Shown piece after piece: positions 1 to 17,698 of a stretch of 20,000 nt of DNA. How positions within the stretch are numbered: position 1 is the first letter of the stretch; each line of letters opens with the position of its first letter. The notes beneath the pieces are model-generated. The model was not told the DNA's origin. It saw nothing but the letters and a program-made list of their open reading frames with translations, and did no database searches. The stretch is from Malassezia furfur (lineage: Eukaryota), in the NCBI GenBank assembly GCA_052055015.1, contig JBQJIT010000007.1; one strand, given 5' to 3'. The translations under genes and the position numbers were made by a program.

Positions 1-1297
1 ATGCGGAAGTCGCCCATGTAACTCAGCGATGCCATTTTGGTGTACAGCTCTCGCTCACTGAAGCGCTCGGGCAGCAGCAGAAACGACACACGCAGAGCAG
101 ACGCCAAGTTGGCCTGTTCCGCGAGCGGCACACGACCTTCTGTGGAGTCAAACAGAGTCGCGACCGGTTTCTGCATACGCCCGCTCAGGTACAGGCTGTC
201 CCACTGGAGGAGATCCTTGCACATCCGATCCACAGACACGACACCGTACTTAACAATCTGCGTGAGGCCTTGCAACATACCTTGTCTTCCACCTTCACAT
301 AGGGGATGTACCACACACCGGCCCCCATGTTTTGCACCCGCCGAAGCACCCACCACGGCGCCACACGTACCCACCATGGATAGTGCGAGGGGTTGTTGAT
401 TATATTCCGGCTGTGCCAATGCACAGGATTCTGCACAGAAATGACCATGTCGATCATGGGCGGCGTTCCGTTCGGCTGACGCTTGGCCGTCGCGGTCTGG
501 CTGAACACACCCGAACCATAGGCAAATGCATGCAAAAATTGCGGTAGATTCATCAAGTTGAGCAAGTGCAAAAGCTTTTGGCGGTGGTGTGCCTCGGATT
601 TGGTGAGGCGATCAATGTGAGGCACCGTCGTCGGCAGAACAAACGATGCGGGGTATCGATTGAAGCCCCGCCTCCGAGCTGCAGCATCATTCTCTTGGTC
701 TGCTTCGCGCTCCGCCAGCGCATCCTCGCGGAAATCGTCGCGCATTTTGTCTTGGTCACTTTCGCCGCTCTTCTCGTAGTCGGCAGGGTTGTATCCACGC
801 TTCTCAGCTGCGGCCAGGTCTTTTGCATCGGCTTCGTATTCAGCGGCTGCATCCTGTTGAAAGTCTTTGCGAACAGCCTCCTCACTGGGACGCTTCTTGT
901 AGTCATCTGGTTTGTACCCTCGTCGTTCCGCGGCGTCGACGTTCTGTGCATCGGCCACGCGCTCCGCCGAAGCTTCCTCACGGAAGGTTAGTCGCTCGTT
1001 GAGCTCGTCGCCGTCCTGAGAATTGTACTTGGAGGGATCAAACCCCCGTTTCTCGGCCTCCTTTTCGTCCTTGGCATCGGCCTCACGCTCGGCCAAGCCG
1101 TCCTCGCGGAACTGCTGCCGAGCGTGTCCGGACTTATTCGGCAGCACGGATGAGGAGGTCAGCAGTCGGTGCGCCGCCCAGCAAGAAGGTGCTAGGACTC
1201 GCGCATGACTTCCATGGATCCCAGGTGCTCGTGCCCAAGCATGGCTACGGGTTGCGGAGCTGACCGCCCGCATGCATTGCACTGTTGCCCACGTCAT
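1..1297 (-). CDS. TAM41: Mitochondrial phosphatidate cytidylyltransferase Tam41/Mmp37; exons 1297-281 and 257-<1; 3' end off-window
   Basis: Motifs AFAYGSGVFSQ, MIDM..V.NP..WHS.N...NPSHY and GAGVWY. After removing intron 258-280 the frame reads IVKYGVVS..DLLQWDSLYLSGRMQKPV..ANLASALR..LSYMGDFRM. The start is probably ACC-ATG at 1297 (or ATG 1273); ATG 1354 lies only about 15 nt from the upstream gene's stop. Confidence 0.93.
258..280 (-). other. 23-nt GT-AG intron (TAM41)
   Basis: GTATGTtgcaaggcCTCACgCAG. Removal joins VKVEDK to IVKYGVV, the conserved Tam41 KYGV motif. Confidence 0.9.
650..1111 (-). repeat. Four ~41-43-aa protein-level tandem repeats within the Tam41 N-terminal extension
   Basis: FREDGLAEREADAKDEKEAEKRGFDPSKY / FREEASAERVADAQNVDAAERRGYKPDDY / FQQDAAAEYEADAKDLAAAEKRGYNPADY / FREDALAEREADQENDAAARRRGFNRY, starting at 1111, 985, 862 and 733. 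Confidence 0.9.
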
Positions 1298-1368
1298 GGT
1301 ATTCCCGGTACAGTTCGGTCCGCTAAGTGGAGGTGGGGACTTCCGGGTATGCACTATGTGGAGAAAAA

Positions 1369-3034
1369 TTACGCGGTCTTGGCACCGCGGCTCGCCAGGC
1401 GTTCGTCGAGCACGCCCTGGTTTTGCAGATGGGCCATGAACCCGCCCACTAGGTGCAGACTGCCTGCCACAAAGACGTTTGGAGTATTGTGCAAATCTTT
1501 GACGGCGCGCATGACATGCTCAATGCTCGGCATCACTTGCAAAACCGACGACTCACCGATGCTCACCGACAATTGACCAGCTGCCGGCTCAGGAAGCTGC
1601 AACAATGAGCACCAGGCGCGAAGTAGCTCCTGCTGTAGCTTCATGCTTTCCAAGTCTTTGCTGTCCACGGCGCGCGATACCAAGTCTGGGTCAGTTTCCT
1701 TACGTACCGCTTGCAGAGCCACCGTCCGCAAAAGTATTGTTGGTGCAGAAGTAGACACGCGAAAAGAAGGTAGCGGTGTCGACTTTGGCAACTCTGTGCT
1801 CCAGTTCCTTGATCAGTGCACCCAACAACGTGGCGCCGGACCGCATATTGGTGCAGTTAAACACAAGCACGCGCTTCTCCGGCGCGTCGAGCACCTGATC
1901 GAGGTACCATCGCACACAGAACTGAATACTTTCGATCGTATGCGCACCGTCGAGAAAGTATGTCGCACCGGCGGTTTCGGACGCTGGTACCACTTGACAG
2001 CGGCCGGGCCAGAAGGCCGTCTCAAGTGCCTTGATCGCCTTGTTCGACAGCTGGCTGTCGTTGGTCTGCAACGCTTCGACTGCGCCCGGCACCACAGTTT
2101 TCCCAGCCTCCGATTCGGCAAAGGCACGGACTAATGCGAGGGCAAGGCTTGCATTGGTGCGCTGGTGTATGCCAGGCAGACCAAGCGCGACCGACTTTAA
2201 GCACGCAAGTTCGGGGACAACCTCAAATTTCGACACACACACTTTCTCGGCATACGCACGCATGGCAGCCAACGCATTCTCCGGTTGTTCGGTGGTCAGG
2301 GCCGGCACACCGCTTTTGAAAATACCGGCCTTTTGTACGGCGATCTCTTCGATGGTATTACCGAGAATGGCGGTATGATCCAGTCCCAAAGGCGTCACAC
2401 CCGTCACTACAGGGTGGCGCACGATATTGGTGGAGTCGTACATTCCGCCAATCCCCACCTCGAGCAGTGTCGCAGCAACACGCTCGGTAATGAAGACGTG
2501 GAATGCCAGCAGGGTCATGAAACGAAAGTAGACAGGCCGGAGTGGGGTCACCTCAAGCTTGCGCTTGGAGTTGCTCTCCAAGCGGTCCCAGACCTCCCAG
2601 AAATAACGAGCAAAGTCGTCTTCTGACAGTGGCACACCATCGATGCGGATGCGCTCGCGCGCGGCGACCATGTGAGGCGAGGTATACAGGCCGATCTTGT
2701 GTTTCTCGTTTGTGCGGAACTCGCGAAGGAGCGAATCACAAAAGGAACCAGTGGATCCTTTTCCCTTCGTGCCGGTGATGTGCACGACGTTGATCTGGTC
2801 GAGCTCATTGCGGTGGTGGCCGATGCGCTCCAAGTACTCGGTCATCTCTGGCTCATTGAGCTCATTTACCGTCTTTCCGCTCTTGCGTATCGCTTCAATT
2901 GTTGCTGCATTCGACTGAAGCGAGTTGAGCGCGTCAACTGCTTCTGCATAGCCACGGCGTGCGCTGCTCATGGATGCGTATCCCCTGCGAAGCCACAGCA
3001 CTCCACACCTGGCCCAAGCTGCGCCGATGCGCAT
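1369..3034 (-). CDS. MET7: Folylpolyglutamate synthase (Met7/FPGS-like); exons 3034-1708 and 1685-1369; possible second start at 2971
   Basis: LNSLQSN, HITGTKGKGST P-loop, GLYTSPH, RERIRIDG, LEVGIGGMYDSTN, LGLDH, WPGRCQ, DGAHT and C-terminal GSLHLVGG. The spliced junction reads FCTNNTFADGGSASDLVS. Confidence 0.93.
1686..1707 (-). other. 22-nt GT-AG intron (FPGS)
   Basis: GTACGTaaggaaaCTGACcCAG. Removal joins the 1700-3034 frame to the 1369-1791 frame (G|AC = Asp). Confidence 0.9.
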
Positions 3035-3071
3035 GGCACGCCGGCGGTGGACCCTGCGTTTGGACCAAATG

Positions 3072-3130
3072 ATGACTCATCCCACGTGGTCTCGGCCGGG
3101 TCACTATCTAGTTTTACACAGTGCACGTGA
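3072..3130. promoter_or_regulatory. Candidate Gcn4/CpcA-type site (ATGACTCAT, 3072-3080) and two CACGTG E-boxes (3083-3088, 3124-3129) in the divergent FPGS/RPL6 promoter
   Basis: Exact consensus matches in intergenic DNA; function not demonstrated. Confidence 0.45.
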
Positions 3131-3245
3131 TATCATGGATGGGGGTCGCCGCCAGTTCTTCGGACGCGCTCAGGGAAAGCAGTGGAGCCGCTGCGGCCGA
3201 TTTCTGCTCTTAACCATCAAGGCCAACTGAGTGGATTCACTTTTG

Positions 3246-3375
3246 GTACGTGTGCAATTGCGCGAAGGCGCGCGCGATACATCCTTTGCGTGGGAACATC
3301 ATTGTTCTACGTGCTGGCTGTTTCAAAGCCCGCTTTTCGTCGCGACCTGAGAGCCCAGATACTAACACTGAACAG
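3246..3375 (+). other. Probable 130-nt 5'-UTR intron of RPL6
   Basis: Donor GTACGT at 3246, branch TACTAAC at 3360-3366, acceptor CAG ending at 3375, then CCAACC-ATG. Confidence 0.7.
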
Positions 3376-3381
3376 CCAACC

Positions 3382-4095
3382 ATGGCCCGCAACAGCACGA
3401 TTAGCCCCTACGTTGGCCGTCTCGGTCGCAGCAAGCTCTACTCGAAGAAGGGTGGTTACAAGCACGCCGAGCGCAAGCCCGTTGCCAAGGCTGCTGAGGA
3501 GCCCGCTGCCACCAAGGAGAAGACGGTTGGCGGTGCCAAGAACGCTGGCAAGCGTGTGGTGCCGACCAGCAAGGCGCAGCGCTTCTACCCGGCCGATGAC
3601 GTGCGTGCCAAGAAGGTGAACCGCAAGACGCCCAAGCCTACCAAGCTGCGCGAGAGCATCACCCCCGGTACGGTGCTGATCCTCCTTGCCGGCCGCTTCC
3701 GTGGCAAGCGCGTGGTGTTCCTGAAGCAGCTCGAGAGCGGTCTGCTGCTGGTTACGGGCCCCTTCAAGCTGAACGGTGTTCCTCTCCGCCGTGTCAACCA
3801 GGCGTACGTGATCGCCACCAGCACCAAGGTCGACCTGAGCAACGTCCAGGTTGATGCCAAGCTTGACGACGCATACTTCCGCCGCGAGAAGGCTGCGAAG
3901 ACCAAGGCGGAGGCCTCGTTCTTCGCTGACCCCGCCAACAAGGCCCCGCTGCCGGAGAACAAGGTGGCGGACCAGAAGGCGATCGACAAGGAGGTCGTTG
4001 CTTCGGTCAAGAAGCAGGGCCCGATCCTTGCCAAATACCTGGCTGCTACCTTCTCCCTCTCCAAGGGCGACAAGCCGCACGCCCTCCGCTTCTAA
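3382..4095 (+). CDS. RPL6: 60S ribosomal protein L6 (eL6)
   Basis: [63 protein letters not shown] and C-terminal [19 protein letters not shown]. Strong codon bias; ACCATGG start context. Confidence 0.97.
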
Positions 4096-4307
4096 GCGAG
4101 TATGCTGCAAGTGATGTCCACCTCGCGATTTGTATTTGAATCGCACGGTACGGTGCTGCACCCGCTCGGTCTGGATGCACCGCGTATGTAGTGGCGCACA
4201 CTGAGTTGCGTGAGCTGTATCTGTTTTCAAAATAGACCGGAATCGAACTGCGCTCTTTGCGCGTTTGCCCATCGCGTCTTGTAGGCTATGTTACACTGTA
4301 TGCGAGG

Positions 4308-6566
4308 CTACTGCTTGCCATGTGCTTTGTACTCTTCCGCACCCTGTCGGCTCAGCTCGCGCAGCTTGCGGGTGGTGGCGTCCGGGATACGTTGCCACTT
4401 GATGTCAGGCTGGTCGGGGAGCTGCTCCGGCTTCGGCACCGTCTTGACCAATGCCATCCCTTTGCGTTCCATAATCTCGCGCGTGCTCAGCTGTCCGGGG
4501 GCACGGGGCATACCGATTGCGGTGCCGTTTTCGCGCTCTTCCAGGAACCGAGCCAAAGCACGAGGGCGCTCGGAAAGCACATCGATGCGGTGCTCTTCAC
4601 GTTCATTGAGTTTCTCGACGTTAGGCAGCACCATGGATTGCAACGCCTGCTGTCGCTGCCGGATGTCTTGCAGGTTGCTCCGCATATGCACGGGACTCAG
4701 GTCGTGGCGAGGCGTGATGCAGTAGTCGACATGCCAAGTCAGGTCCGACAGATTGGTTTGCGGGGACCGTCCCGTTCGTACCTCCTCCAACTGTGCATCG
4801 CTCAGCGTCCCGTTAATCCCAGCAGGGTCGACAGGGCCACGCACGAGCGCATTGTTCAGATAACGGTCCATAGTCACGTCAAACTGCATGATGCGAGAGC
4901 CATCTTCGCTCTGCACCAATACATTCATCGCGCTCGCACCCGCGCGCGTCTCAAGTGTGACACCCAATGACTCGTCGGGGAAATGCTCCACGGCGGTCTC
5001 CAGGATCTTTTCAAGGAGACCCAGCGACAGTCGGTAGGCCAACTCACCCATCTGCGCACTGCCAAACAGGCGCTCACTCATCTCCTCCAGCGTGATGTAC
5101 TGGAAGCCAAACAACTGCGATGTGTTGTGGTACGCCACAAAAATGCCATCCATGTTGCCGATGCGCACCTGGAAGTTGTACTTGAGGAAGGCAGCTCGTA
5201 CCATATCCCAGTACTCACGCTCGAACGACTCCCAGAGGCCATTGGACTGCTGAATTTGGTAGCCGCTGCTCTCCGCATAGTTCGCGCGGTCATGCCGAAT
5301 GGAGACACATGCCCGCGTCTTCAAATCAAACGTGCGGTTCGGGAGTCGCTCGTCAGAACAATCGAGCTGCGACCGCATGAGGAACTGAGAGGTCTGCGCG
5401 TAATGATATGCCTCCTTCGCCTCTCGAGCGCTCTTTGGCAGCTTATGGCTGTTGATGCGCTCGTACATGGCATACTCTTTGAGCGGCACTGTCAGGTACT
5501 TCTCTAGGCTCTTGCCCAAGGACGTCAACACGTAGTTGGAATTGTCGATTTCGCCATCCGAGCCTTTGTCGGCATCGATCGCATAAAACCCGTCGGGCTG
5601 GCGCTGGAGTCGGACGGACACAGGCAGCTTGGCACCCTCGCTGAATCCCGTTGGCATGTCACAGAAACTCGGGCTAAAACCGTGCAGCTCGGGCTCTTTC
5701 CAACGGCTCAGAAGATAGTAACAGTGGCTCAACAAACCCGTCATGCTGCTGGTGCTGCCACAGAAACGCTTGCCATATTTCTTGGTGATGGCGAGCAGCT
5801 CAGGGTCTTTGCTCGATGTAAGGTAGGGAGGAAGAGCGCCGTAGTCAAACAGATCCACGTCGAGCACCTTTTGGAGCTGGCGGTCGTAATTGTAAATACC
5901 CGAATGCCGGTCACGGAGCCAATGTACACCAGGGCTGCGTTAGTTATAGACTTACTTGAACAGTACTCTGTCCAGTCCATGGGCTAGTGTAGCGACCTGC
6001 ATCTTTCGCAGCGGTGGTACGGCTGGGTCAGTCGAAAGGCACGTACTGTTGACTGACACATCGGTAGCGGCCAAACGACCTACGCGTTCGCCGTCTCTCC
6101 CTTTGCCATCTTTATACTCTTCCAGACGCACAGTTCGCGCACGATCCGCTTCTTCTCCGCGAAGAAAACTGGTAGGGCGAGGTATACGACGCGCGGACGG
6201 GCGTGGGAAGGATACCACTTTCGGTGGGGGCGGAGCCGCAGGTGCGGAGGTCGCGGAGGACGCTGGAACCACTGCCGGCGTAGGTGCGCTCTCCGCTTTC
6301 TCGTCCGACTTTGCCATCTTTTCAGACACAGCCTTCTCCTTTTTTGTCTTTTTGCTTGCTTTCGTAGCTGGCTCGGGTCTGGGCGCTTTTGATGCACGCT
6401 CACTACTCCGCTTGTTTCGCGCATTGAGCATCATATATTTGGTGTATTTTGACGCCGCTTTTTTAGGAACACAAGGGGTGCTATGAATCATCCTTGAAGA
6501 TGCATACAGCGCTCGAGGCTCGCTCGCAACTGCACGTCCGAGCCACCTGCCCCATGCTGTCGACAT
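4308..6566 (-). CDS. PET127: Mitochondrial RNA 5'-end processing exonuclease Pet127; introns 5935-5955 and probably 6023-6046
   Basis: LAHGLDRVLFN|PGVHWL, YLTSSKD, GSTSSMTGLLSHCYYLLS, FLMRSQLDC, FDLKTRAC, FEREYWDMVRAAFLKYNFQVRIGNMDGIFVAYHN. Presequence-like N-terminus from ATG 6566 (the ORF track's 6605 start is TTG). Confidence 0.93.
5935..5955 (-). other. 21-nt GT-AG intron (PET127)
   Basis: GTAAGTctataaCTAACgCAG, containing an in-frame TAA. Removal restores the conserved VLFNPGV. Confidence 0.92.
6023..6046 (-). other. Probable 24-nt in-frame, stop-free intron (PET127)
   Basis: GTACGTgcctttcgaCTGACcCAG matches the consensus of the other introns but is not required to keep the frame open. 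Confidence 0.72.
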
Positions 6567-6699
6567 TCTTCGACACCGGCGTGCAATCGGAACCAAAAAA
6601 TACAAATTAGTCAGCTGCCAGCCGTCGCACTACTGGACGAGGGTATGATGGAGGCCGAGGTAGGGTGCCTGGATTCCAGCAGCGATGGCTGAATGCATT

Positions 6700-7384
6700 T
6701 TAGAAGTCCCATAACCGCCGCCTGTATAAGCGATTGGGTTCGCGACATACCATAGGAGTGGCGGTTCCAGGAACTTGTAGCCATTGGATTCGTATTCGTT
6801 CGGCCAAATGTCGGTCAAAAAGAACACTGGGTCAGCAATTCATACGTGCCTAGCTGCCCCACAAACATGGATGCCACATCATGCAGGAACTCGGCGCTGT
6901 TACCTTGCAGTGCCCAGTTGACGGCAGTGATGATATACGGCTGGTAGGGGGCCGAAAATACGATCAGGCCAAAAAGGCCCATGCGGACGTGTCGGTTTTT
7001 GCGGCTCCAGATGTACATGAGCACATACGAGAGTCCGTCTCCGAGAAATGGCATCGAGAGGAGTGAGCTAAGGCTCAAGAGAATGAGAGAGGAAATGAGT
7101 AGCAGCCATGCATAGTCTGCGCGTCTAGACATCCCAAACGTCTCCACTTCTAGCATGTAGGAGTACCGCATGGTTACAAGCAGATTGAACAAATAGTAGC
7201 TGCTGAAAGAGCCGAAGTACATGAAGGAGGTTAGCAGCCGCCAGTATTGTCCCGCATGGAAAACCAAATGGGAGGAATAAAACAATTGGTATCGAGACAC
7301 AAATTCCAGCTTCTCAAGAGCAGAAAGTGCCAAGGCACTCACCACCCACACAGTTGTGAACGGTGGCAAGCTCTCGACATTCAT
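6700..7384 (-). CDS. DER1: Derlin (Der1-like ERAD membrane protein); exons 7384-6850, 6826-6751, 6721-6700
   Basis: LPPFT, QYWRLLTSFMYFG, RYSYMLE, ADYAWLL, YIWSRKN, APYQPY. The spliced C-terminus reads VGQLVFFLTDIWP..LEPPLLWRRLWDF*. Confidence 0.88.
6722..6750 (-). other. Probable 29-nt GT-AG intron (derlin)
   Basis: GTATGTcgcgaacccaatcgCTTATaCAG. Removal gives a derlin-like end (PLLWRRLWDF*); retention would read on to a stop at 6630. Confidence 0.7.
6827..6849 (-). other. 23-nt GC-AG intron (derlin)
   Basis: GCACGTatgaattgCTGACcCAG. Only the GC donor restores frame and gives GQLVFFLTDIWP, aligning with the derlin GHxYYFLxDVxP motif. Confidence 0.8.
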
Positions 7385-7476
7385 CGTGCACCGTGCGCCG
7401 TGGTGGCCGCAACCAAGTGTTTCCACGTGTCGCACCCCGCGGCACCACCCCTCCACATTGGTCGCTTGTCACCACG

Positions 7477-8694
7477 ATGAGTGAGGGGAAGAGCAACACG
7501 GTCGAACAGTGCCTTCCGCTTCTGCTCCAGACACCCCCAGGGCAGCTCAAGCATGTGCTGCATGACCTACAGGGAATAGTGTCTGGTGGCTCGGCCAAGT
7601 CGTCAAGCCCGAACGACTTCTTGCTAACACATGCCCAGCCGTACCTGGAGCAGCACAATCACGAGCAGCTCATGGTAGCTCCCATCGAGGTGGATGGCAA
7701 GAAGCACGATGCTATCGTGTGTCCCGAGGCAAAAGTCGATACAGGGAGGGGGGCGCGCTATTTACACCCCAAGTCGAAACACGCGTTCACCTACGATCAT
7801 GCACAGGAAACCGCAACTAATATCGAGCCGTATACGGGTGTTAGCGCACTCGAAACGCTTCGTAACGAGATCGATGAGCGCCTTGGCAAATACGTGTACA
7901 ATCACTTCCACACGGGCGTCTCGTCAGTGTTTACCCCCACGCCTTTTGCGGAAGCGGAACATCTTCCCGAGCCTCAAGAGGAGGGGCTGTCGACCATGGA
8001 GACCGAAACTGTCCAGATTGAGCCAGAGGAGAGCACTGAAGCAACAGTGCAGCCACTAGAGTCTATGGAAATACCAGAAGCTGCCAAAGAGGCTCCTAAA
8101 ATGGAGGCACCCTCGGCTGTGCCTACCGAAGAGGGAACCGAAGATGCCAAATCTGGCACTGAAACTATTACCCAGGCTACGGAGCCCCAGAGTGAAGTGA
8201 AGCCAGATGCATCGGCGAACAGTGAGCATACAGATGCTCCGGCTGCCTCTGCGCCCTCTGCTGTGACCCCCGTCGAGGATCCTGTTCATCTCACTATTCA
8301 CATTGTGGGCAACAAATACAATCTCCGCAATTTCTGGTCGGGCCGTTGGAGATCTACGTATGTTTTCGATCCACACACTGCTGCATTCGTGTCTGCCTCG
8401 ATTCGCGTCAATGCCCACTACTTTGAGAATGGAAATGTGCAGCTGAACACGGAAAACAATGACCTTCCGGTGGTGGATGTTGAAGGCGGCTCGCCGGAGA
8501 CGGTCGCGAAGGCCATCGTGGCAGCGATTGAGAAACACGAGCAAGAATATCAAACGACTTTGTTTGCCACAACGGACATGTTGCGCGATCGGGCATTCAA
8601 AGCGCTGCGTCGCACCTTACCCATTACACGGCAAAAGATCGATTGGGACAAAGCCGTGAGCTACAAACTCGGTGCCGAGCTGGCCAATCAGTAG
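7477..8694 (+). CDS. CAP1: F-actin capping protein alpha subunit with a long acidic insertion
   Basis: LLQTPPGQL..V..DL, IVGNKYNLRNFWSGRWRS, VNAHYFENGNVQL, FKALRRTLPITRQKIDWDK..SYKLG. Confidence 0.95.
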   Translation: MSEGKSNTVEQCLPLLLQTPPGQLKHVLHDLQGIVSGGSAKSSSPNDFLLTHAQPYLEQHNHEQLMVAPIEVDGKKHDAIVCPEAKVDTGRGARYLHPKSKHAFTYDHAQETATNIEPYTGVSALETLRNEIDERLGKYVYNHFHTGVSSVFTPTPFAEAEHLPEPQEEGLSTMETETVQIEPEESTEATVQPLESMEIPEAAKEAPKMEAPSAVPTEEGTEDAKSGTETITQATEPQSEVKPDASANSEHTDAPAASAPSAVTPVEDPVHLTIHIVGNKYNLRNFWSGRWRSTYVFDPHTAAFVSASIRVNAHYFENGNVQLNTENNDLPVVDVEGGSPETVAKAIVAAIEKHEQEYQTTLFATTDMLRDRAFKALRRTLPITRQKIDWDKAVSYKLGAELANQ

Positions 8695-8934
8695 CACGTG
8701 GAGCTTCTTTGTTCTAGGTGGTCCGTGCACCAACAATGAAGAGACAAGGATGATCATACGAACATATAAAACCTGCCAGCGCGGAGGGGTGCATGCATGC
8801 CGCGCGCATGCAATGTCCGAGAGCAAAGCGTGTACCAATTCTGTGGTGCCAGACATATCGCGCGCGAGCCAAGCCACGCCCACGCGGGCCAGCAGCGGCG
8901 ACCTCGGGCGTGGCCGGTGCGGTTTTTGCCGCCC

Positions 8935-9654
8935 ATGGCAGGGTCCGGACGCGAATACGTAGTGGTGCATGACGAAGAGCCGCTTGCATTCCATACCACC
9001 CTGTATGCACTCAAGAAAGGCCACGCGTCGACTGTGGCACAACTCGAGCTGCATGCGCGGAGCCAAATCGACCTGTGGGCCGAGGACACCAGCGAGGGAC
9101 ACGTGTGCTTCCTTTCTCTCACTGGATTTGAGCAGGAGCGAACGCCTGAGGTGCAATGGGTCATCCAGCTGCGTGGCACAGAAGAAGAAGCGAATGCATG
9201 CCTGCACAAGGTCCGCGGACTCGTGCGTCGCCTTTCACGGTTGGACCGCGAATTCCGGCTGGGGGGGAGCGTCAAGTTGTACACGGACCCCGATCACCCC
9301 AACCAGCCTGAGTACAAGAGCAAGCTCGAGTGGCTGCTGGGCACTGCCTCACCGCTGGCTGAGCCCCTATCACAGAACGATCTGCACTGCTACGGCATTG
9401 TACCGCGGCGAGCTGAGCTGACGAGTCCTCTGATCGACGCGTGTTTCAACGAGTTGCTGGCGAGTCTTGAATCGTATTCGCTGTCCAAGTCGCTCCCGCC
9501 GACGTCGGGTACGTGCATGAGCGAAGCTTCCGACGTGTCTCCGCTGCGGAAACGCGTGCGGTACGGCATGGCGGCGGTACAAGAGCATACTGTGCCGCCT
9601 GCGGCACATCGGCGCGGATCGTGGATGGCATCCATGCCGTTCGCATCTACATAG
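8935..9654 (+). CDS. Hypothetical protein (~239 aa; alternative upstream ATG at 8797)
   Basis: Open frame filling the gap between CAP1 and exportin-T, with globular-looking composition, CCCATGG start and a stop 7 bp from the convergent gene's stop. No family recognised. Confidence 0.7.
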   Translation: MAGSGREYVVVHDEEPLAFHTTLYALKKGHASTVAQLELHARSQIDLWAEDTSEGHVCFLSLTGFEQERTPEVQWVIQLRGTEEEANACLHKVRGLVRRLSRLDREFRLGGSVKLYTDPDHPNQPEYKSKLEWLLGTASPLAEPLSQNDLHCYGIVPRRAELTSPLIDACFNELLASLESYSLSKSLPPTSGTCMSEASDVSPLRKRVRYGMAAVQEHTVPPAAHRRGSWMASMPFAST

Positions 9655-9661
9655 CGAGCCT

Positions 9662-12600
9662 CTACGCGGCGCCACGCGACTTGGCGATGAAGGTTTCGAG
9701 GTAGCGTTTCAGCGGTTTTGCCTCGAGGGTCTGGATGTTTTGGGCGAGCTCCATGCCCATGTCCGGCGGGCATTGGACGCTCGGTAGGTACACGGCGGTG
9801 AGGTACTGGATCAACTCGTCGCCGCGCGCCTGATGGATGGTTTTGAGCAGCACGCTGAGCTCGGTGAGCACCTGCTGCGCTTGCGCATCGCTGGCATCGA
9901 ACGACGGCTTGCTCGGGATCTGGAACACAAGCGGGAGGATGGCATCGTAGAGGAATTGCTCAAAGCCCGGCAAGACACTCGTGTCGTTGCTGGCGCGCGT
10001 GCCCCACAGCGTCACAAGGCGCACCAAGACGCCGATCGCTGAGCGCTGCGTGAGCGGCTCGCCATTTTCAGCGTAGAACACGAGGCTTTGCAGCACCGAC
10101 TGGAGCTGCTGCTGGTTCTTTTCCGAGACCAGTACGCCATCGAGGCCCGCCGAGAGCAGCGCGTTAATGAGCCCAAAGTAGGCGCGCTCCATGTCGGCAC
10201 GGCGCACGTAGTCGTCGGTGCCCTGGACGCTCTGGTTCAGGAAGGAGAAGATGCGGTTGACCAGCACCATGAACAAGTCGTCCATCACGTCGCGCACATC
10301 CTTTTTGTACTTGTGCGTGATCAGACCAAAGAAGTTGAGCAGGTCGACGAGTTCGCCTTCGCTCACTTCGTTCACGAGCGCATGGATCAGTGTGGGTATG
10401 TAGGGCAGCACCGCGGGGCCTGCGGACGTGACAACTCGCGCAAATGCACCGCGTGCCGCCTCGCGGATAATCATAAATTGGTTCAGCGCGGTGAGCGCAA
10501 GCAGAATCTGCTCCGTAACGGGCTTGAACTCGGGGATCCACGCGGGCTCCGTCGTGCGGCTCGCATCGTAGTCCGGGAAGCCCTTGGCGAGCGTGCTGAG
10601 CGCCAGGATCAGATGGTGTGCCTGCAACACAGACTGCAAGTTGGTGCTGTCGGCGCCAAATGCCTGCACGGCCTGCTGTAGCTGCTCGGAGAGCGGCTGC
10701 GTGATGGCCTTGAACAGCATCACCTGCGTGTCCGGCGATGGACCGAGTTGCGCAATGAGCAGGCCAGCCGTGTCAAACAGGTACAGCTGGCTGTCAAAGG
10801 CACTCGCGCGCTCCGTTGCCTTTTGCAGCGGGTCCTCCTCGGGCGTCACCTCAGGGAGCTTGGCCTGCACGTAGAACGACTCCTGCATGCCCTCGAGCAG
10901 CCGCGGCACAAACTCTGCGGGGATCGCCGAGCGGGTATCGCGCACAAAGCGGTAGAACAGGTAGTTGATGCGCCGCCGCATTCCCACGCGCGGGTTGCGC
11001 AGACCGCGCCCGTCCAGGAACGCGGACAGCGCACCAGGCAGAAACTCTGGCCAGAGCAAGAAGCTGGACGCATAGCGCACCACGCACTCGAAGTACTGCA
11101 GCTGGACGACCGGGTGCAGATGCTCCGAGAGTCGTGAGCGGAATACGAGTTGGAGCATCTCGCCGAGCTGGTTCAGCGGCAGACTCTGGTATACCGAGAC
11201 GGACTGGCGCACATTACGCGCCTTGCCGGGCTCATCGGGGAGCTGCACGTAGGAGTGCGGGCCAAGGCCCACCTTGTTGCCACGGATCGAGCTGAGCACC
11301 TCGCCGCACGAGTAAATCGCATAGAGGCACAGCTCCGCCTGCTCCCACGGCAGCTCCTGCTGCTCATTGAGCGCCAGCGTCGAGGAGACGAGCGAGTGGA
11401 TCGTGTTGGAGACGAGCGACTCGTCAATCGCCGCAATGGCGCCCATGATCATCTGCAGCTGCTTACGCAGCTCGTAAAACTTGAGCAACTGCTCGTCATC
11501 CTCCTCGGCATCCTCCGCGTCGGTGTCGGCGGGGCCGCCAACCAGCGACGAGTCTTCCCAGTCCACTTCACTGTCGAACCGGAACTTGGCCAGGACGAGT
11601 TGGATGAGCCGTGCAATAAATTCACCCTGTGCGCCGTTCAGGCCGGCACCCACCGCATCGCCTTGCCGCTTGTTTTTCTTGTAAAGCGAGAGTACGAGGT
11701 GGATGCTCGGCAGCACCTGCTCGACCGGCTCGTCGTACTCGTCCTGTAGAAATGCCAGCACTAGCTGCAAAAAGTCGAGCAGCTTGGCCTGCGCCACTTC
11801 GCGCGTCTCGGCTTCGGCGCCCGCCTGATCCTCGGCAATTTTGCACAGCTCGATGCTGACCACATTGACGAGCTTGGCAAGGTGCTCACGCAGCTCGCTT
11901 GCCGCATCCTCACTGCCGGTACCACCACCTTGTGCAGCACTGCGCGTGGACGACTCGAGCGAGGCGACCACCTCGTCAAGCTTAAGTCCCTGGATGAGCG
12001 CCAGCTTATCCGCCGGCTTCATGCCCTTGGACACAATCTCACACAGGGTATCCGCTGTGACGCAGCGCAGCTGAGGGTGCTGTGAATGCAGCGCATTAAA
12101 CAGGATCGGCACCGTGTCCATGTTGATCACCAGGCCAATGTCGATCCACGTCGCAAAGTCGCCGACGACCGCCATTGCAACCTGCGCCAGGCTACCGGCC
12201 GCACCGCCGTACAGGCTGTGGGGCGACGGGTTCGCGACGGGCGCTTCGGACGTCATGGCACTCAGCGCATCGCGGATCACCTTCCACAACAGCTCGGCAA
12301 TGTTGGCCGCATGGTGCGCGCGAATCTCGTCACGGACGACGGCGTCGCGCTGCAGGCGCTCCTTGGAGCGCACCGAGCGCAGTGTCACGTCGGAGCCAAG
12401 GCTAAGCGACAGGTCGTGCAGCACACGCAGCACGAGGTCCGTGGTGAGCGCATTCAGCGAGCCATCCTGAGCCTTGGTCGTCGTGCACAGAGTGAGCAAC
12501 GCAATGAGAAAGGAGTACGAGTTGGTCAAACTGTACGTTTGCAGCACGAGCAGCGAGAGCGTCTGTGCGAGCTTGTTTTTCATAAACACCACGCCCTGCT

Positions 12601-12963
12601 CACCTTCGCCTGCGACAAACTCGGTTTGCAGGTAGGCGAGCGCCGACTCTTGCAGGAAGGCCAATGCTTCCTCGGGGCTGCCCACGGCATGTACGCTGCG
12701 TGAGTGATGGGCGCCACGTACCGTCGCTCGAGAAAGTCGTCGACCAGATTCAGGCCAAACAGGCGCACAGCGTGCGCATACTTGGCACGCCCGTCGTCGC
12801 GTGCGACCCACACGGCCCACCCGGTGCTCCAGGATTCGTCGGTGGCCTGTTTGAGCTGCTCCAGGTACGCGAGCGCCTGCGACACCAGGTTCGTGTCGGT
12901 CACTGCCGCTGCATTGGACGCAATTTCCACAGCTTGTGCCAGCTGAACCTCGTTGGAATCCAT
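9662..12963 (-). CDS. LOS1: Exportin-T (tRNA export receptor, importin-beta family); exons 12963-12722 and 12695-9662
   Basis: About 1090 aa, helical-repeat composition. Motifs [53 protein letters not shown] and YLFYRFV resemble XPOT/Los1. Confidence 0.9.
12696..12721 (-). other. 26-nt GT-AG intron (exportin-T)
   Basis: GTACGTggcgcccatcaCTCACgCAG. Joins the 12580-12963 frame to the 9662-13504 frame (CG|C = Arg). Confidence 0.88.
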
Positions 12964-13163
12964 CTAGCACACCAATCAAAGCATGCGTCCGCGCCGACAA
13001 AATCGATCCGTCTTCTACGCAACACTGAAAGGAACGCGGCGCATGTTGCACGCACGTGACCTTCACCAGGCAGGGGCGCCGGGGCAGGTGCCCGGTGGCC
13101 TGGGCGGCGCACGCTGGAGCCAGTGGAGGCGCGGGGATTTCCAACCTCTTCGCCTCTTGCAGC

Positions 13164-14342
13164 ATGTCGTGGCGCACGACCGGTCTGCGCGTTTCTGCGC
13201 GCCTGCTCTCGACGCAGGCCGCCGCAAAGCCTCCGACAGCGGTGGTCATGATGAACATGGGCGGGCCGCGCGACCTCGATGAGGTCAATCCGTTCTTGAC
13301 GCGCCTCTTCTTGGACCGCGACCTGATGCGCCTGCCGTTCCAGTCGCGCCTCGCCCCCATGATTGCGCGGCGGCGCACACCCAAGATCCGGCAGCAGTAC
13401 GACGATATCGGCGGCGGCTCGCCCATCCTGCAGTGGACGCGCCTCCAGGGCGAAAAAATGGCCGAGATGCTCGACGAGCTTAGCCCCAGCACCGCTCCGC
13501 ACAAGGCGTACGTCGCATTTCGCTACGCCCGCCCGCTCACGGAGGACTGTCTTGAAGATCTGGCACGCGACGGCGTCACCCGTGCCGTTGCGTTCACACA
13601 GTACCCGCAGTACTCGTGCAGCACCACCGGCAGCTCGCTGAACCAACTGTATCGTGAAATTGCTGCGCGCAAGGCGCAAGGCGCACCCGAAGGCAACATC
13701 CAGTGGTCCGTGATCGACCGCTGGCCGACGCACCCGGGGCTTGTGCAGGCGTTTGCGAACCGCGTGCGCGAGGGACTGTCGCGCTTCCCCGCCGAAATCC
13801 GTGACCAGGTGCCGATCATGTTCAGTGCGCACTCGCTGCCGATGCAAGTCGTTTCGGGCCGTGGTGACCCGTACCCTGCCGAGGTGGCTGCGACCGTCGC
13901 GGGCGTGATGCAGAACCTTGGGTGGCAAAACCCGTACCGCCTCACCTGGCAAAGCCAGGTGGGGCCTTCGGCGTGGCTCGGGCCGCAGACCTCGGACACG
14001 GTCGAGGGCTGGGCCAAGCAGGGGCACAAGCACGTCCTGGCTGTTCCAATCGCGTTCACGAGTGACCACATCGAGACGCTCTACGAGCTCGACATTGAGC
14101 TTAAGGAGGACGCCGAGAAGCACGGCATCCACCTTGAGCGCGCACCGTCGCTGAACGATGAGCCCGTGTTCCTCCGAGCGCTCGCTGACATTGTCGCCGA
14201 GCACCTGGCGTCGAGCGGGGCGTCTCCGAGCGCCGTGCCATGGGCACAGGGCAAGGGCAGCCACCAGATGGCGCTCCGGTGCCCGGGGTGCGTCAACGAG
14301 GCGTGTGCGCACCAAAAGGCCTTTTTCCTACAGCAGTCGTAG
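13164..14342 (+). CDS. HEM15: Mitochondrial ferrochelatase
   Basis: [75 protein letters not shown]. Presequence starts at ATG 13164. Confidence 0.97.
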
Positions 14343-16576
14343 CTATCCCCACAGTGCATTCCACGCACGCTGCATGAGGCCAGGCGCGGGTGCCGACTCG
14401 GCGGGCGTCTCAGCAGGCTGCTCGGGTTCGTCCGCCGCCGCCGCCGCCGGTGCCTCGTCGTCGTCCGGCCCGTCGAGCGGCTCCTCCTCCGTCTCAAAGC
14501 CGTCGTCCTCCTCGACGTCTCCTACATCGCCCAGCTCGCCCGCCTCGCGCGCGCCATGCGCCTGCAGCAGCAGGTCGCGCGTCTCGGGGTCGACAAAGTC
14601 CATAAGCTGCTGCAGCTCGTCGGCGCCCAGGTTCTGCAGGTGTCGCAAAATCTCCCACGCACCACGCTGACTGCCCGCGGGCCGCTGCTGCCGCAGCTGG
14701 TCGCCGACCACGGCGAAGTACGCGTCGTCGTACCGCGAGCCGTGCGCGGGCGGCAGCGGATCAAACGTCTCCATCCCACCCGGTGGATTGCGTACCGCCG
14801 GGGGGAAGTAACGCATGAGCTGCTGCTGCAGCGCCTCGGGTAGGTCGGCGACAACCACGTGGCGGTACACACCCATGCGCGTTGCCTCGTCGGCGACGCC
14901 CGGCGTGGCGCGCGCGTGCTCGAGCTGCGGGCGCACCTCGTCCCAGATGGTGCGGAACCAAGCGGCAATGGGCGCCTCTTTCCAGAGCGAGATGGAGCGG
15001 TGCACATACAGGTGCGCAAGCAACTCGTCAAACGCCGCGTCCTTGGCGCTCCACTGCCCCCGCATCTGCACAAACGAAGGGGCAGGCAGGTCAAGCTTTT
15101 CACAGAGCAGCGCGGTCGCACACGGGTGGCGCGCAAGCGCAAGACGCAGCGCGGCGTCGCTACGCGTGTGTGTCTTGTCGCCCTCATCTTTCTCCACGGC
15201 GCGCAGCGCCAGCGCCCGTGCAAACGATGCGCCAACGCTCCAGTCGAGCGCGCCGCCCCACGTCTCGTGCGCGGCCTCCTTTTGGGCATCGAGTGGCGTA
15301 CGCGCCGCGACGTTGTCGAGATGACCATGTGCCGCGATCGCTTCGCGGCGCTCCCCCTCGAGTGCGTCGAGGAACGTCAGCAGCCACGCGTGCTGCTTGC
15401 TCTTGATCGCCAAAAAGTCGATCCACAGCAGCATGCCATGCGGGTCGCTCGTGTCCAGGCCGAGGAGCAGCTTGCACCACTCGAGGGCCGTACGCCACGT
15501 GCCGCGCCGGCCAAACAAATCGACGTTGCGGTGCCCGGCGAGCCAGAACGCGCGGTTTTCGGCGCGGAAAAAGTCAACCTGCGGGGGGCCACTCGAGGCG
15601 GTGAGGCCCGCCGTGAACGGCGGCGCGGCCGAGCGCTCCATCGCGAACAGCGCACGATCGATAAAGTCGGCCGCTTGCCCGAGGTCGCCCTGGTAGCGCG
15701 ACACATCGGAGAGCTGGAGCAGCGTATCGATGTGCCAGGGAAAGACGCGCATCAGCGCCATGAGCGCGCCCGTGTCGTGCGAGTTGACCGCCTGCGCGAA
15801 CTGGAACTGTGCCTGGCGGTACGCACGACTGTGCACCCAGTTGCACACGCGGCCTGCGGCGCTCTCGTCCGTGGTCATGCTCAGGCCCACAAACGTCCGC
15901 GCAATGTCCGGCCAGGTGGCCTTGGGCGTACACAGCAGCGTGCGCGCGCGCGTATTCGAGTTGAACATAGCGCCACGGTTCTCACGGCTGCGTGCACCCG
16001 CGCGCGTCGGCATTCCCGCCGCATTCTTCTCGCGCTCGTACGCCTTGATCGCAGCTGCGCCAAACTGGCGACGCAGCTCCAGCGCCGGATCGAGCTGCGG
16101 CGCGTCGAGCGCGAGCGCGCCACGGAGCACGGCGTGCGGAGACACTGGCTCACTCTTCGCCTTGGACTCGGACTTTGGCGCGTCGCGCGGCTGCTGCGTC
16201 TGGAGGAAGGCGGTCATCTCTTCGATCGACATCTCGTTGATGTCCTTTGCCGGCACCGCTTCACGCTTGGGCGGCGTATCGGCGGCCGGCGGGCTTTTGG
16301 TGGTATCTTTGCGCTTGTTCTTCTTCTTGTTCTTCTTCTTCTTCGTGGGCGCCGGCTCGGGCTCGGGCTCCGCCTCTTCCGCCGGTTCGTCGTCGTCGGC
16401 GACTTGGAGCTGGATTAGTAGGCACTACGTACCGCCGCAAAGCCTAGCGTCGGCGCACTCGGTTCCGGGGCTGCACGAGCGGGCGCAGGCTCTTCGTCGA
16501 CATCCGCTTTGATCGCATCGAGCTCCTTGAGCTCCTCGAGCTCGCGCTGCTGACGTCGATTCAGCCGGCGGCTCAT
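14343..16576 (-). CDS. RQC1: Ribosome quality control protein Rqc1 / TCF25 family; exons 16576-16433 and 16409-14343
   Basis: N-terminal MSRRLNRRQQ, polybasic tract, LDPALELRRQFG, HSRAYRQAQFQF, PWHIDTLLQLS, DFIDRALF, ENRAFW, RRGTWRTALEWCKLLLGLD..DP. Confidence 0.9.
16410..16432 (-). other. 23-nt GT-AG intron (RQC1)
   Basis: GTACGTagtgcctaCTAATcCAG. Joins GFAA to LQVADDDE, in frame with the 14343-16256 ORF. Confidence 0.9.
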
Positions 16577-16634
16577 TCGCGTCGTGGCGTCTTCGGCCGA
16601 AGCACGGTCTTCGCAGCGCACCGACCACCCACCG

Positions 16635-17698
16635 ATGCTCTGGGCACGAAGAATGACGAGCGGCGCTGCGGCGCTCCGTGTATCCCCTTTTGCTAAGGCA
16701 CGAGGGTATGCACGGGTGCCGTACGCATCCCGCGCCTACTCTACGGATGGCAAAGGGCAGGAGAAACCGTCACTAACGGAAAAGATGAAGTCGGCCACCG
16801 AGCGGCTCGAAAACGAGGCAGCGTCTGGGCAGCCCAGGCGTACGGCTGCCTCTAGCAAGCAGATGATGGGCGTACGTATACAACGCGTCTCACACAGCCT
16901 TTCAATGTACCCGCAGCTGTCCTGTTCATCGCGACAGGGGTCGGCCTCTACTACTACTTCCAGCGCGAGAAGCGCAGGATGGACGAGCGGCGCCTGCAGC
17001 AGATGCAGGAGCAGTCGGTCGGTCGTCCGATGATCGGTGGCCCCTTCTCGCTGGTGTCTTCTACGGGTCATCCTGTGACGGACGAGGACCTGCTCGGGAG
17101 CTTTAGCCTGATCTACTTTGGCTTCACCAACTGTCCTGACATCTGCCCCGAGGAGCTTGACAAGATGTCTCAGGTGGTGGATGCCGTGGATCAGGAGTCG
17201 GGCCCGCTGATCAACCCTGTGTTCATTACATGTGACCCTGCGCGCGACCGCGTGCCTCTCGTGGCCGAGTACATTGCGGACTTCCACCCCCGCATGCTTG
17301 GCCTCACGGGCTCGTACGACGACGTGAAGAAGGCGTGCAAGGCGTACCGCGTGTACTTTAGCACGCCGCCGGGCGCAGACCCCACGCAGGATTACCTCGT
17401 GGACCACTCCATCTTCTTCTACCTGATGGACCCTGAGGGCAAGTTCGTGGATGCGTTTGGTAAGAGCACAACGAAGGAGGAGGTGCTGGCCAAGGTGCGC
17501 GACTACATCAAGCGGTGGAAGGCCGAGGGGCTACCGCTGCGCGAGGCAGACGCTAAGCAGCGCGCCGCCTCCGATGGACGGTCGATCACGAGCAACACGG
17601 AATTGTTCTCGGCCCCAGAAGCAAACCCGTCCAAGCCGCCGGCAGTGGTCGAGTCGGGCGCTGCGCCTGCGCAGCCGGCGCCCCAGCGGATTATTTAG
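16635..17698 (+). CDS. SCO1: Cytochrome c oxidase copper chaperone Sco1/Sco2; exons 16635-16871 and 16898-17698
   Basis: Presequence, transmembrane segment (GPFNVPAAVLFIATGVGLYYYF), IGGPFSL, YFGFTNCPDICPEEL (CxxxC), DPARD and DYLVDHSIFFYLMDP. Confidence 0.96.
16872..16897 (+). other. 26-nt GT-AG intron (SCO1)
   Basis: GTACGTatacaacgcgtCTCACaCAG. Joins MMG to PFN and brings the transmembrane helix into frame. Confidence 0.9.

Follow-up and report, generated by a model that had tools for sequence, protein, structure and literature searches.

The short introns of this genome are very probably ordinary introns of the major (U2-type) class which, in the furfur clade of Malassezia, have been squeezed against the physical lower limit of intron length. 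The window, that is, the whole 20,000-nt stretch of DNA analysed here, comes from a furfur-clade genome, probably that of a hybrid. Nine short candidate introns had been described in the window, and all of them were present with the positions, lengths and ends claimed. They are listed here with a tenth, long candidate.

258..280, minus strand: TAM41 intron, 23 nt; the Pfam Tam41 match (positions 9-95) stops at the donor, and positions 94-177 restart past the acceptor in a different frame
1686..1707, minus strand: intron of the folylpolyglutamate synthase (FPGS) gene (1369-2971, minus strand), 22 nt; 526 aa spliced versus 423 aa unspliced
3246..3375, plus strand: candidate intron in the RPL6 5' UTR, 130 nt, TACTAAC branch, branch-to-G distance 10; suggested by positional conservation
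5935..5955, minus strand: PET127 intron (gene 4308-6566, minus strand), 21 nt, with an in-frame stop within it and the putative branch A at nt 16
6023..6046, minus strand: in-frame PET127 intron, 24 nt; if retained, it gives an 8-residue insertion relative to 14/14 Pet127 homologues
6722..6750, minus strand: DER1 intron close to the gene end (gene 6700-7384, minus strand), 29 nt; suggested by orthologous introns
6827..6849, minus strand: DER1 GC-AG intron, 23 nt; a conserved C-terminal stretch is regained on removal
12696..12721, minus strand: exportin-T gene intron (gene 9662-12963, minus strand), 26 nt; links 80 open codons with 1011
16410..16432, minus strand: TCF25/RQC1 gene intron (gene 14343-16576, minus strand), 23 nt; 736 aa spliced versus 53 aa unspliced
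16872..16897, plus strand: SCO1 gene intron (gene 16653-17698, plus strand), 26 nt; 339 aa spliced versus 126 aa unspliced

In the window, the pattern GYAHGT-N3-20-CTNAY-N-YAG had 9 matches; 300 dinucleotide shuffles, done in blocks of 500 nt, gave 0.18 on average (sd 0.43, max 2). Because, in addition, 2694 motif matches of 18-24 nt were found genome-wide against 24 in the control, chance is excluded as the source of these segments. The nine introns have GT/GC..AG ends and a U1/U6-type donor, as U2-type spliceosomal introns do, and seven of them have a length that is not a multiple of 3. Their removal restores a conserved reading frame, as judged from homologue alignment or a profile in five of the nine, from introns at the orthologous position in the case of the second DER1 intron, and from ORF length together with the homeolog in the other three. 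Homologues or a second gene copy in the genome thus back each of the nine, and the view that these segments act as real introns was supported. For all introns here, we infer splicing, the identity of the branch A and efficiency from the sequence.

As for the individual introns, the FPGS junction aligns with 12/12 homologues, without a gap in 11. The PET127 protein is 737 aa long once both introns are removed, and it ends at 196-204 aa when 5935..5955 is left in place; the junction at this intron aligns gap-free to 13/14 homologues. At the site equivalent to the other PET127 intron, the related locus L119 has an intron of 43 nt. The DER1 intron 6722..6750 has the weakest branch of the nine, CTTAT, and the same codon position holds introns in L113 (49 nt), L115 (30 nt), L119 (41 nt) and L122 (25 nt). 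The other DER1 intron has orthologous introns in L113 (46 nt), L119 (38 nt) and L122 (31 nt), and none in L115 or L118. The second gene copy, L018, keeps the length and signals of the exportin-T intron, of which exon 1 alone found no match among solved structures. The homeologous copy in L018 also has an intron of equal length in TCF25/RQC1 (26 nt in the relative L122) and of identical length in SCO1.

Each of the nine introns was thus correctly described, but they do not cover the full range, since the 130-nt RPL6 candidate lies in the same interval and had been missed. Its donor and acceptor positions are kept in 8/8 related RPL6-bearing loci, with lengths of 115-137 nt. A search of this intron for a snoRNA gave no Rfam match.

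The near-minimal size of the introns held genome-wide. A length of exactly 21 nt was seen in 785 matches (control 1), and only 22 were of 15-20 nt (control 17); the median length is 23-24 nt and the floor is 21 nt. A branch A before nt 16 is essentially never seen. The 21-nt PET127 intron, in which the branch A had been placed at nucleotide 16, shows a position that is also the genome-wide lower limit. That is, the rigid measure is at the donor end, the putative branch A lying at nt 16 or later, and the floor of 21 nt follows because the acceptor G lies at least 5 nt past that A (16 + 5).

When 800 kb were scanned with coding-frame breaks and GT/GC..AG ends alone, the same motif and a peak at 21-29 nt were regained. 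Just 37% of its 496 calls were of 30 nt or less, and many long calls without the motif were treated as noise. The noise component of this unsupervised EM did not fit, so we relied on the short peak with the motif alone and checked it again against a decoy donor. The same 800 kb contain 373 motif-defined introns, and the density is 0.47 per kb when GTAYGT donors only are counted. In 70 homeologous intron pairs, the flanks were 90% identical and the intron middles 62%. The lengths of the two copies differed by a number not divisible by 3 in 14 of these pairs, and none was below 21 nt.

The donor consensus, GTRYGY, is strong, and the commonest donor carries C at +4. The putative branch motif CTNAY, which can pair with GUAGUA of U2, was found in 161/194 frame-defined short introns; CTGAC, CTCAC, CTAAC and CTTAC are all common. 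The short introns have no polypyrimidine tract, as had been stated. With branch positions assigned from the motif, the branch-to-AG distance was 5 nt in 103 and 6-9 nt in 50 of the 161 introns. It was also 5 nt in 93/138 frame-confirmed introns and in 238/373 motif-defined introns, the latter set being limited to distances of 10 or less by construction. In other words, about two-thirds of introns have the A as the sixth base from the end, and the rest have it 1-5 nt further upstream. A distance of 5-7 nt accounted for 128/138 frame-confirmed introns, so that more than 80% lie near one distance, and 5-8 nt for 226/269 unfiltered donor+CTRAC sites. We also applied a simple rule, namely the first CTNAY with its A at nt 16 or later, followed by the first AG at least 5 nt on. 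Of 178 donors examined, 32 had no such branch motif in range; among the 146 testable ones the rule gave a frame-consistent end in 138 and failed in 8. An AG upstream of the branch is skipped in 25 of the 138 conforming introns.

The genome-wide tally of distances is thus narrow and not broad. Judged by the motif, the distance is strongly modal and, as Irimia and Roy use the term, constrained, and it is not invariant. The original description of a fused branch point and acceptor at a fixed distance fits the nine short introns of the window, in all of which the A is sixth from the intron end (a branch-to-G distance of 5), but it was not supported for the genome. A truly fused element, one fixed 9-nt motif as in Trichomonas and Giardia, would account for these nine, for the large share at 5 nt in the motif-defined and frame-confirmed sets, and for a spacing equal to the mode in Yarrowia (PMC2483917). 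We consider it improbable, however, because a third of the introns have 6-10 nt, both homeologs retain such longer distances in 18/70 pairs, and the RPL6 distance is 10. Moreover, NCAG follows only about half of the donor+CTRAC sites genome-wide (1390/3201; controls 11 and 488; NTAG left uncounted). Less probable still, and already largely refuted, is an origin from recently spread mobile introns (introners) or from assembly indels that mimic introns. Related loci that cover the sites do lack one PET127 intron and the FPGS intron, but DER1, TCF25, one PET127 intron and RPL6 share their intron positions with other Malassezia, homeologs keep signals and lengths, and a comparison for exact identity among 772 candidates found 0 identical sequences at unrelated sites.

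It might also be supposed that changes in the catalytic core or in U1 of the furfur clade (an altered U1 snRNA, the Isy1 N-terminus or loss of RED) permit a lariat loop of 16 nt. Such a rebuilt spliceosome is unlikely, if less so than the fused element. In its favour, Isy1 starts with MPPS, where N occupies position 4 in solved homologues, the only ones compared. Despite the presence of METTL16 and SNRNP27K, C is seen at +4 in the commonest donor; loss of these two proteins was therefore rejected as the cause of C or T at that position. Rfam RF00003 found no U1 snRNA (41/173 candidates scored), and a pattern of the U1 5' end plus loop gave 19 matches versus 15 in the control, none of them U1-like by eye or by Rfam. 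The RED_N profile also found no match. The U1 and RED searches, however, had no positive control and used an assembly in 1856 pieces, and we do not take the non-detection of U1 snRNA as loss. Against a rebuilt machinery, U1-70K, U1C, Luc7, SF1, U2AF1, U2AF2, Slu7, Prp18, Isy1, Cwc25 and Dbr1 were all found, and Stentor, which has all the snRNAs, is reported to splice introns of 15 nt (PMC9505925). The spliceosome is thus largely complete. The U2, U5 and U6 snRNAs were found, with canonical recognition sequences in U2 (which has GTAGTA) and U6. Losses of U2AF, SF1 or U1/U2 snRNP proteins were not supported: of the components looked for, RED and the U1 snRNA were the only ones that gave no match. 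Loss of second-step factors owing to the close AG was rejected, as Slu7 and Prp18 are present. As to a Stentor-like change of branching factors, the Cwc25 N-terminus looks normal, and Isy1 differs from the solved homologues in its first residues.

A change was seen in U2AF2. Of the columns conserved in 101 other fungi, 19 Malassezia-clade proteins kept 56% in RRM1 and 63% in RRM2, versus 94% in the UHM and 95% in the ULM; the RRM2 aromatic equivalent to human F304 was kept in 19/19. The two RNA-binding RRMs have thus decayed across Malassezia while the protein-binding UHM and ULM were kept, and this lends the proposed reduced reliance on pyrimidine recognition some support. Since the decay is genus-wide and orthologous introns of other Malassezia are 25-49 nt long, it cannot alone explain the 21-nt floor.

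We therefore return to ordinary U2-type introns at their lower limit, for which we propose the following. The intron would be defined across its own length, the branch motif being recognised by SF1 and U2. The limit at nt 16 may be set by the space that the U6/donor and U2/branch helices take up when both form at once. The 3' site would be the first AG able to reach the active site past the branch; for this reason deletions may have brought most introns down to the minimum of 5 nt by drift, with 6-10 nt remaining workable. U2AF2 would keep its protein-bridging modules, the UHM for SF1/SF3b1 and the ULM for U2AF1, and because there is no room for a pyrimidine tract, its RNA-binding RRM surfaces may have been let go. 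Such a change would be a milder form of budding-yeast Mud2.

That Malassezia introns are short is already known: those of M. sympodialis have a mean of 30 bp (5350 introns, 99% with RNA-seq support; Zhu et al. 2017, PMC5389616), and many were missed by automatic annotation, as here. The main text of that paper has 0 occurrences of "branch", and we found in it neither a minimum length nor a branch motif or branch-AG distance. For M. globosa, a mode of about 36 nt was fitted to an older annotation (PMC6157073 supplement). The lack of a 3' pyrimidine tract and a branch near the AG recall Yarrowia lipolytica, Trichomonas vaginalis and Giardia (Irimia and Roy 2008, PMC2483917), and the modal spacing equals the 2 nt between CTAAC and AG in Yarrowia. 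Those genomes, however, are described as intron-poor, with long introns (median 204 nt in Yarrowia) and a near-invariant ACTAAC, whereas this one has many tiny introns (373 in 800 kb) and a looser CTNAY with four common forms; neither the scarcity of introns nor the single strong branch hexamer is shared. Lineages with short introns, according to the same paper, show weak signals and lack a branch signature; here short introns go with strong signals.

The 15-16-nt introns of Stentor coeruleus (PMC9505925) are likewise tiny and U2-type, with a largely complete spliceosome and the branch A sixth from the end, but that A is at nt 10-11 and the signals are AT-rich and weak. Myxobolid and dicyemid introns (PMC13644364) are also tiny, U2-type and served by a largely complete spliceosome; there U2AF1/2 are reported as conserved, and the branch position is untied from the AG. 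In Mud2, the U2AF large subunit of Saccharomyces cerevisiae (PMC8624252), the UHM is similarly the best-kept part and pyrimidine tracts have little weight. Budding yeast, however, has no U2AF1, whereas Malassezia has it and its U2AF2 keeps a recognisable RRM1, RRM2 and ULM. The 21-nt floor, the branch-AG spacing and the U2AF2 decay were not found described in the literature searched. We tentatively suggest that, among free-growing and genetically tractable fungi, common introns are shortest in the furfur clade, with an absolute steric floor of 21 nt (branch A at nt 16 + 5). In this suggestion, which may well prove too strong, Malassezia U2AF2 would have become a scaffold and ceased to read pyrimidine tracts; the change from U2AF65 to Mud2 would have been repeated here independently and half-way, with U2AF1 still present, and the U1 snRNA would possibly be divergent.

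The expectation that automatic annotation mishandles these introns was borne out: the M. psittaci Pet127 record omits the small exon between two introns, and several Der1 records stop at introns or read through them. In this medically relevant genus, gene models thus often go wrong at such introns, most of which a simple rule can predict. Where the lower size limit for removal by the major spliceosome lies, and what sets it, is an open question that has been studied chiefly in ciliates, nucleomorphs, microsporidia and parasites not easily manipulated. Malassezia is a culturable skin yeast for which gene-editing tools have been published (10.1101/638429), and with thousands of introns at a floor sharp to one base, the limits from donor to branch and from branch to AG are directly testable, aided by strong readable signals and two diverged copies per locus. 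The U2AF2 decay ties the missing pyrimidine tract to a change in one particular protein, and the fungus could be useful for finding out how short an intron can be and still be removed by the normal splicing machinery.

The nine segments that the original prediction had read as introns of 21-29 nt (window 258-16897) are all found in the window sequence at the predicted places and with the predicted lengths and ends. The intron pattern occurs 9 times in the window, as compared to 0.18 expected from 300 shuffles. The segments and the evidence for each are as follows.

TAM41, one intron: a frame change in the Pfam profile match coincides exactly with the segment.
FPGS, one intron (we take the gene to be FPGS from a weak Mur-ligase match plus family knowledge): splicing lengthens the product from 423 to 526 aa, and 12 homologues, chosen from 150, align across the junction.
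PET127, two introns: the 21-nt segment contains a stop codon, and the 24-nt segment would be an 8-residue insertion relative to 14/14 homologues (picked from 120 listed).
DER1, two introns: removal of the first regains the conserved protein tail, and four related loci have introns at the same codon position as the second.
Exportin-T, TCF25 and SCO1, one intron each: the ORFs join over the segment at junctions without homologue support, and the homeologs have introns of equal length with diverged middles.

From these comparisons, we infer that the nine segments are excised from RNA as introns. The expectation that such genes would be mis-annotated was borne out in public protein records (P0006, P0011 and P0121-P0126): the M. 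psittaci Pet127 record skips a small exon, one record fuses Der1 to Pet127, and Der1 records stop at the introns or read through them.

Three further features were observed in the window.

188-1053 (-): 5' part of TAM41; the N-terminal extension that it encodes before the Tam41 domain is long and charged, with imperfect repeats.
7360-8694 (+): gene for F-actin capping protein alpha, whose domain contains a long insertion rich in acidic residues and proline (profile 4-263 stretched across residues 54-440).
8935-9654 (+): ORF of ~240 aa, flanked by the genes for the capping protein and exportin-T, without a Pfam family.

The assembly (13.7 Mb, 1856 contigs) contains two copies of most genes, ~90% alike, which fits an allodiploid M. 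furfur-type hybrid as described in PMC13405305 and PMC4634964. The closest named Pet127 proteins are those of M. psittaci and M. yamatoensis (75%), and the closest named U2AF2 is that of M. obtusa (89%).

Near-minimal introns extend far beyond the window. When the whole assembly was searched with the motif GTAYGT..CTNAYNYAG, the 18-24 nt range gave 2694 matches, as compared to 24 in the control. At exactly 21 nt there were 785 (control, 1), and at 15-20 nt there were 22 (control, 17). The 21-nt length floor is sharp to one base. In an 800-kb sample (80 stretches drawn from the larger contigs, 6% of the assembly), a scan on coding-frame breaks and GT/GC..AG ends alone recovered the same motif unprompted, together with many long calls lacking the motif, which were treated as noise. 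A donor-only filter on this sample gave 194 frame-defined introns of at most 45 nt, among which lengths divisible by 3 are under-represented; 161 had the branch motif, and the median length of these was 23 nt. With a decoy donor, no peak appeared. The motif-defined set comprised 373 introns (control, 16) with a median of 24 nt. Matches of 81-320 nt numbered 144 (control, 59), some surely being a donor joined to the next tiny intron; longer introns are a minority.

The distance between the branch A and the final G of the intron, which had been proposed to be fixed, proved to vary. It was 5 nt in 103 of the 161 frame-defined introns, and 6, 7, 8 and 9 nt in 28, 14, 5 and 3, respectively (other, 8). 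In the 373 motif introns, whose distance is limited to 10 by definition, the numbers for 5-10 nt were 238, 61, 36, 25, 9 and 4. Genome-wide, NCAG followed directly in 1390/3201 donor+CTRAC sites (controls, 11 and 488). Distances of 6-10 nt were retained by both copies in 18 of 70 homeologous pairs, which include one probably spurious pair and two nested duplicates, and whose signal identity is high by construction because they were picked by motif. An AG only 3 or 4 nt after the branch A was found in 5/269 donor+CTRAC sites. The rigid features are two minima: the branch A lies at nt 16 or later, and the AG at least 5 nt further. A rule that takes the first CTNAY with its A at nt 16 or beyond, and then the first AG no closer than 5 nt to it, was frame-consistent in 138 of 146 testable donors. 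The absence of a polypyrimidine tract was upheld, six consecutive pyrimidines occurring anywhere in only 35/373 introns; the spacer is C/G-rich.

In the PET127 intron of a related Malassezia (L119:7727-7769), an AG lying 4 nt past the branch A appears, by homology, to be skipped and one at 9 nt used instead, a choice in line with the 5-nt minimum. Window GC rises from ~55% (5-9 kb) to 66-70% (13-20 kb), and among sampled introns distance 5 was rarer where surrounding GC was lower (49% vs ~70%).

The candidate RPL6 5' UTR intron in the window is 130 nt long with a distance of 10, and its position is kept in 8 related loci. Just upstream of its donor, the UTR exon (window 3209-3245, +) carries a 12-nt motif, ACCATCAAGGCC. 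This motif does not vary between the window and 8 related Malassezia loci, although the UTR around it diverges. The motif had no Rfam match and is possibly a regulatory element of RPL6.

Short introns are known in M. sympodialis, with a mean of 30 bp and RNA-seq support for 99% of them (PMC5389616). The modal spacing here is that of Yarrowia (PMC2483917), and the branch A sixth from the end is shared with Stentor (PMC9505925). Irimia and Roy (PMC2483917) distinguished lineages in which introns are few and signals strong from those in which introns are short and signals weak; unlike either class, this genome has introns that are short, many and strong-signalled. Among the top 13-30 matches per search, mostly in non-subscription literature, no report was found on Malassezia branch spacing, the 21-nt floor or Malassezia U2AF2, nor did the accessible parts of PMC8476143 and PMC3560662 mention the floor. 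Fig. S8 of PMC5389616 and other Malassezia genome supplements may show the length floor.

Among the U1/U2 snRNP proteins, U2AF and SF1, for which the original prediction had proposed a survey, no loss was seen in those tested. U2, U5 and U6 snRNAs were detected, with U2 GUAGUA and U6 ACAGAGA intact, as were U2AF2, U2AF1, SF1, U1-70K, U1C, Luc7, Slu7, Prp18, Isy1, Cwc25, SNRNP27K, METTL16 and Dbr1. U1 snRNA and RED were not found in the assembly by searches without a positive control. Since most components are present, there has been no wholesale spliceosome loss. The ISY1 start (L148, G000:C133) reads MPPS. The Isy1 N-terminus, which is reported to be altered in Stentor, is unlike that of solved homologues in a comparison without a fungal relative as control. 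Two copies of a SNORA9-like H/ACA snoRNA candidate (L126:480-589 and L133:483-592; E ~0.003, below gathering score) adjoin an apparent ribosomal protein gene.

The U2AF2 protein is altered. Among 120 homologues listed, 19 form one Malassezia clade (6 named Malassezia), which has a support of 1.0 in a tree built from 35 of the homologues, and were compared with the other 101 fungi. On average, the 19 keep 56% of fungal-conserved columns in RRM1 (37 columns) and 63% in RRM2 (50). The UHM keeps 94% of its 40 columns, and the ULM 95% of 8 columns chosen at a looser threshold. In RRMs in general, the aromatic residues of the RNP motifs stack on RNA. At RRM1 RNP1 position 5, F is present in 2/19 and any aromatic in 8/19 (F/Y in 100/101 other fungi); at RRM1 RNP2 position 3, Y in 3/19 (99/101); and at RRM2 RNP1 position 3, an aromatic in 4/19 (101/101). 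Against human RRM1-2, this genome's U2AF2 scores 119 bits and that of Ustilago hordei 252. The N-terminal basic region has 83-96 residues in 9 Malassezia-clade proteins and 187-206 in 5 Ustilaginales. The predicted lessening of reliance on polypyrimidine recognition is favored by the low RRM conservation. One observation speaks against this reading: human F304 is a uracil-stacking residue (PMC4786784), and its equivalent remains F/Y in 19/19.

Most likely, in our view, the introns are recognized by intron definition, and the major spliceosome is normal in other respects. The branch would be recognized first, by SF1/U2; the minimum observed between donor and branch would have a steric cause; the first AG reachable after the branch would become the 3' site; and U2AF2 may act as a scaffold. 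The RRM decay of U2AF2 is genus-wide, while the orthologous introns at loci of other Malassezia are for the most part longer, with lengths of 25-49 nt and distances of 6-14. The decay therefore probably preceded the extreme intron shortening, and permitted rather than caused it.
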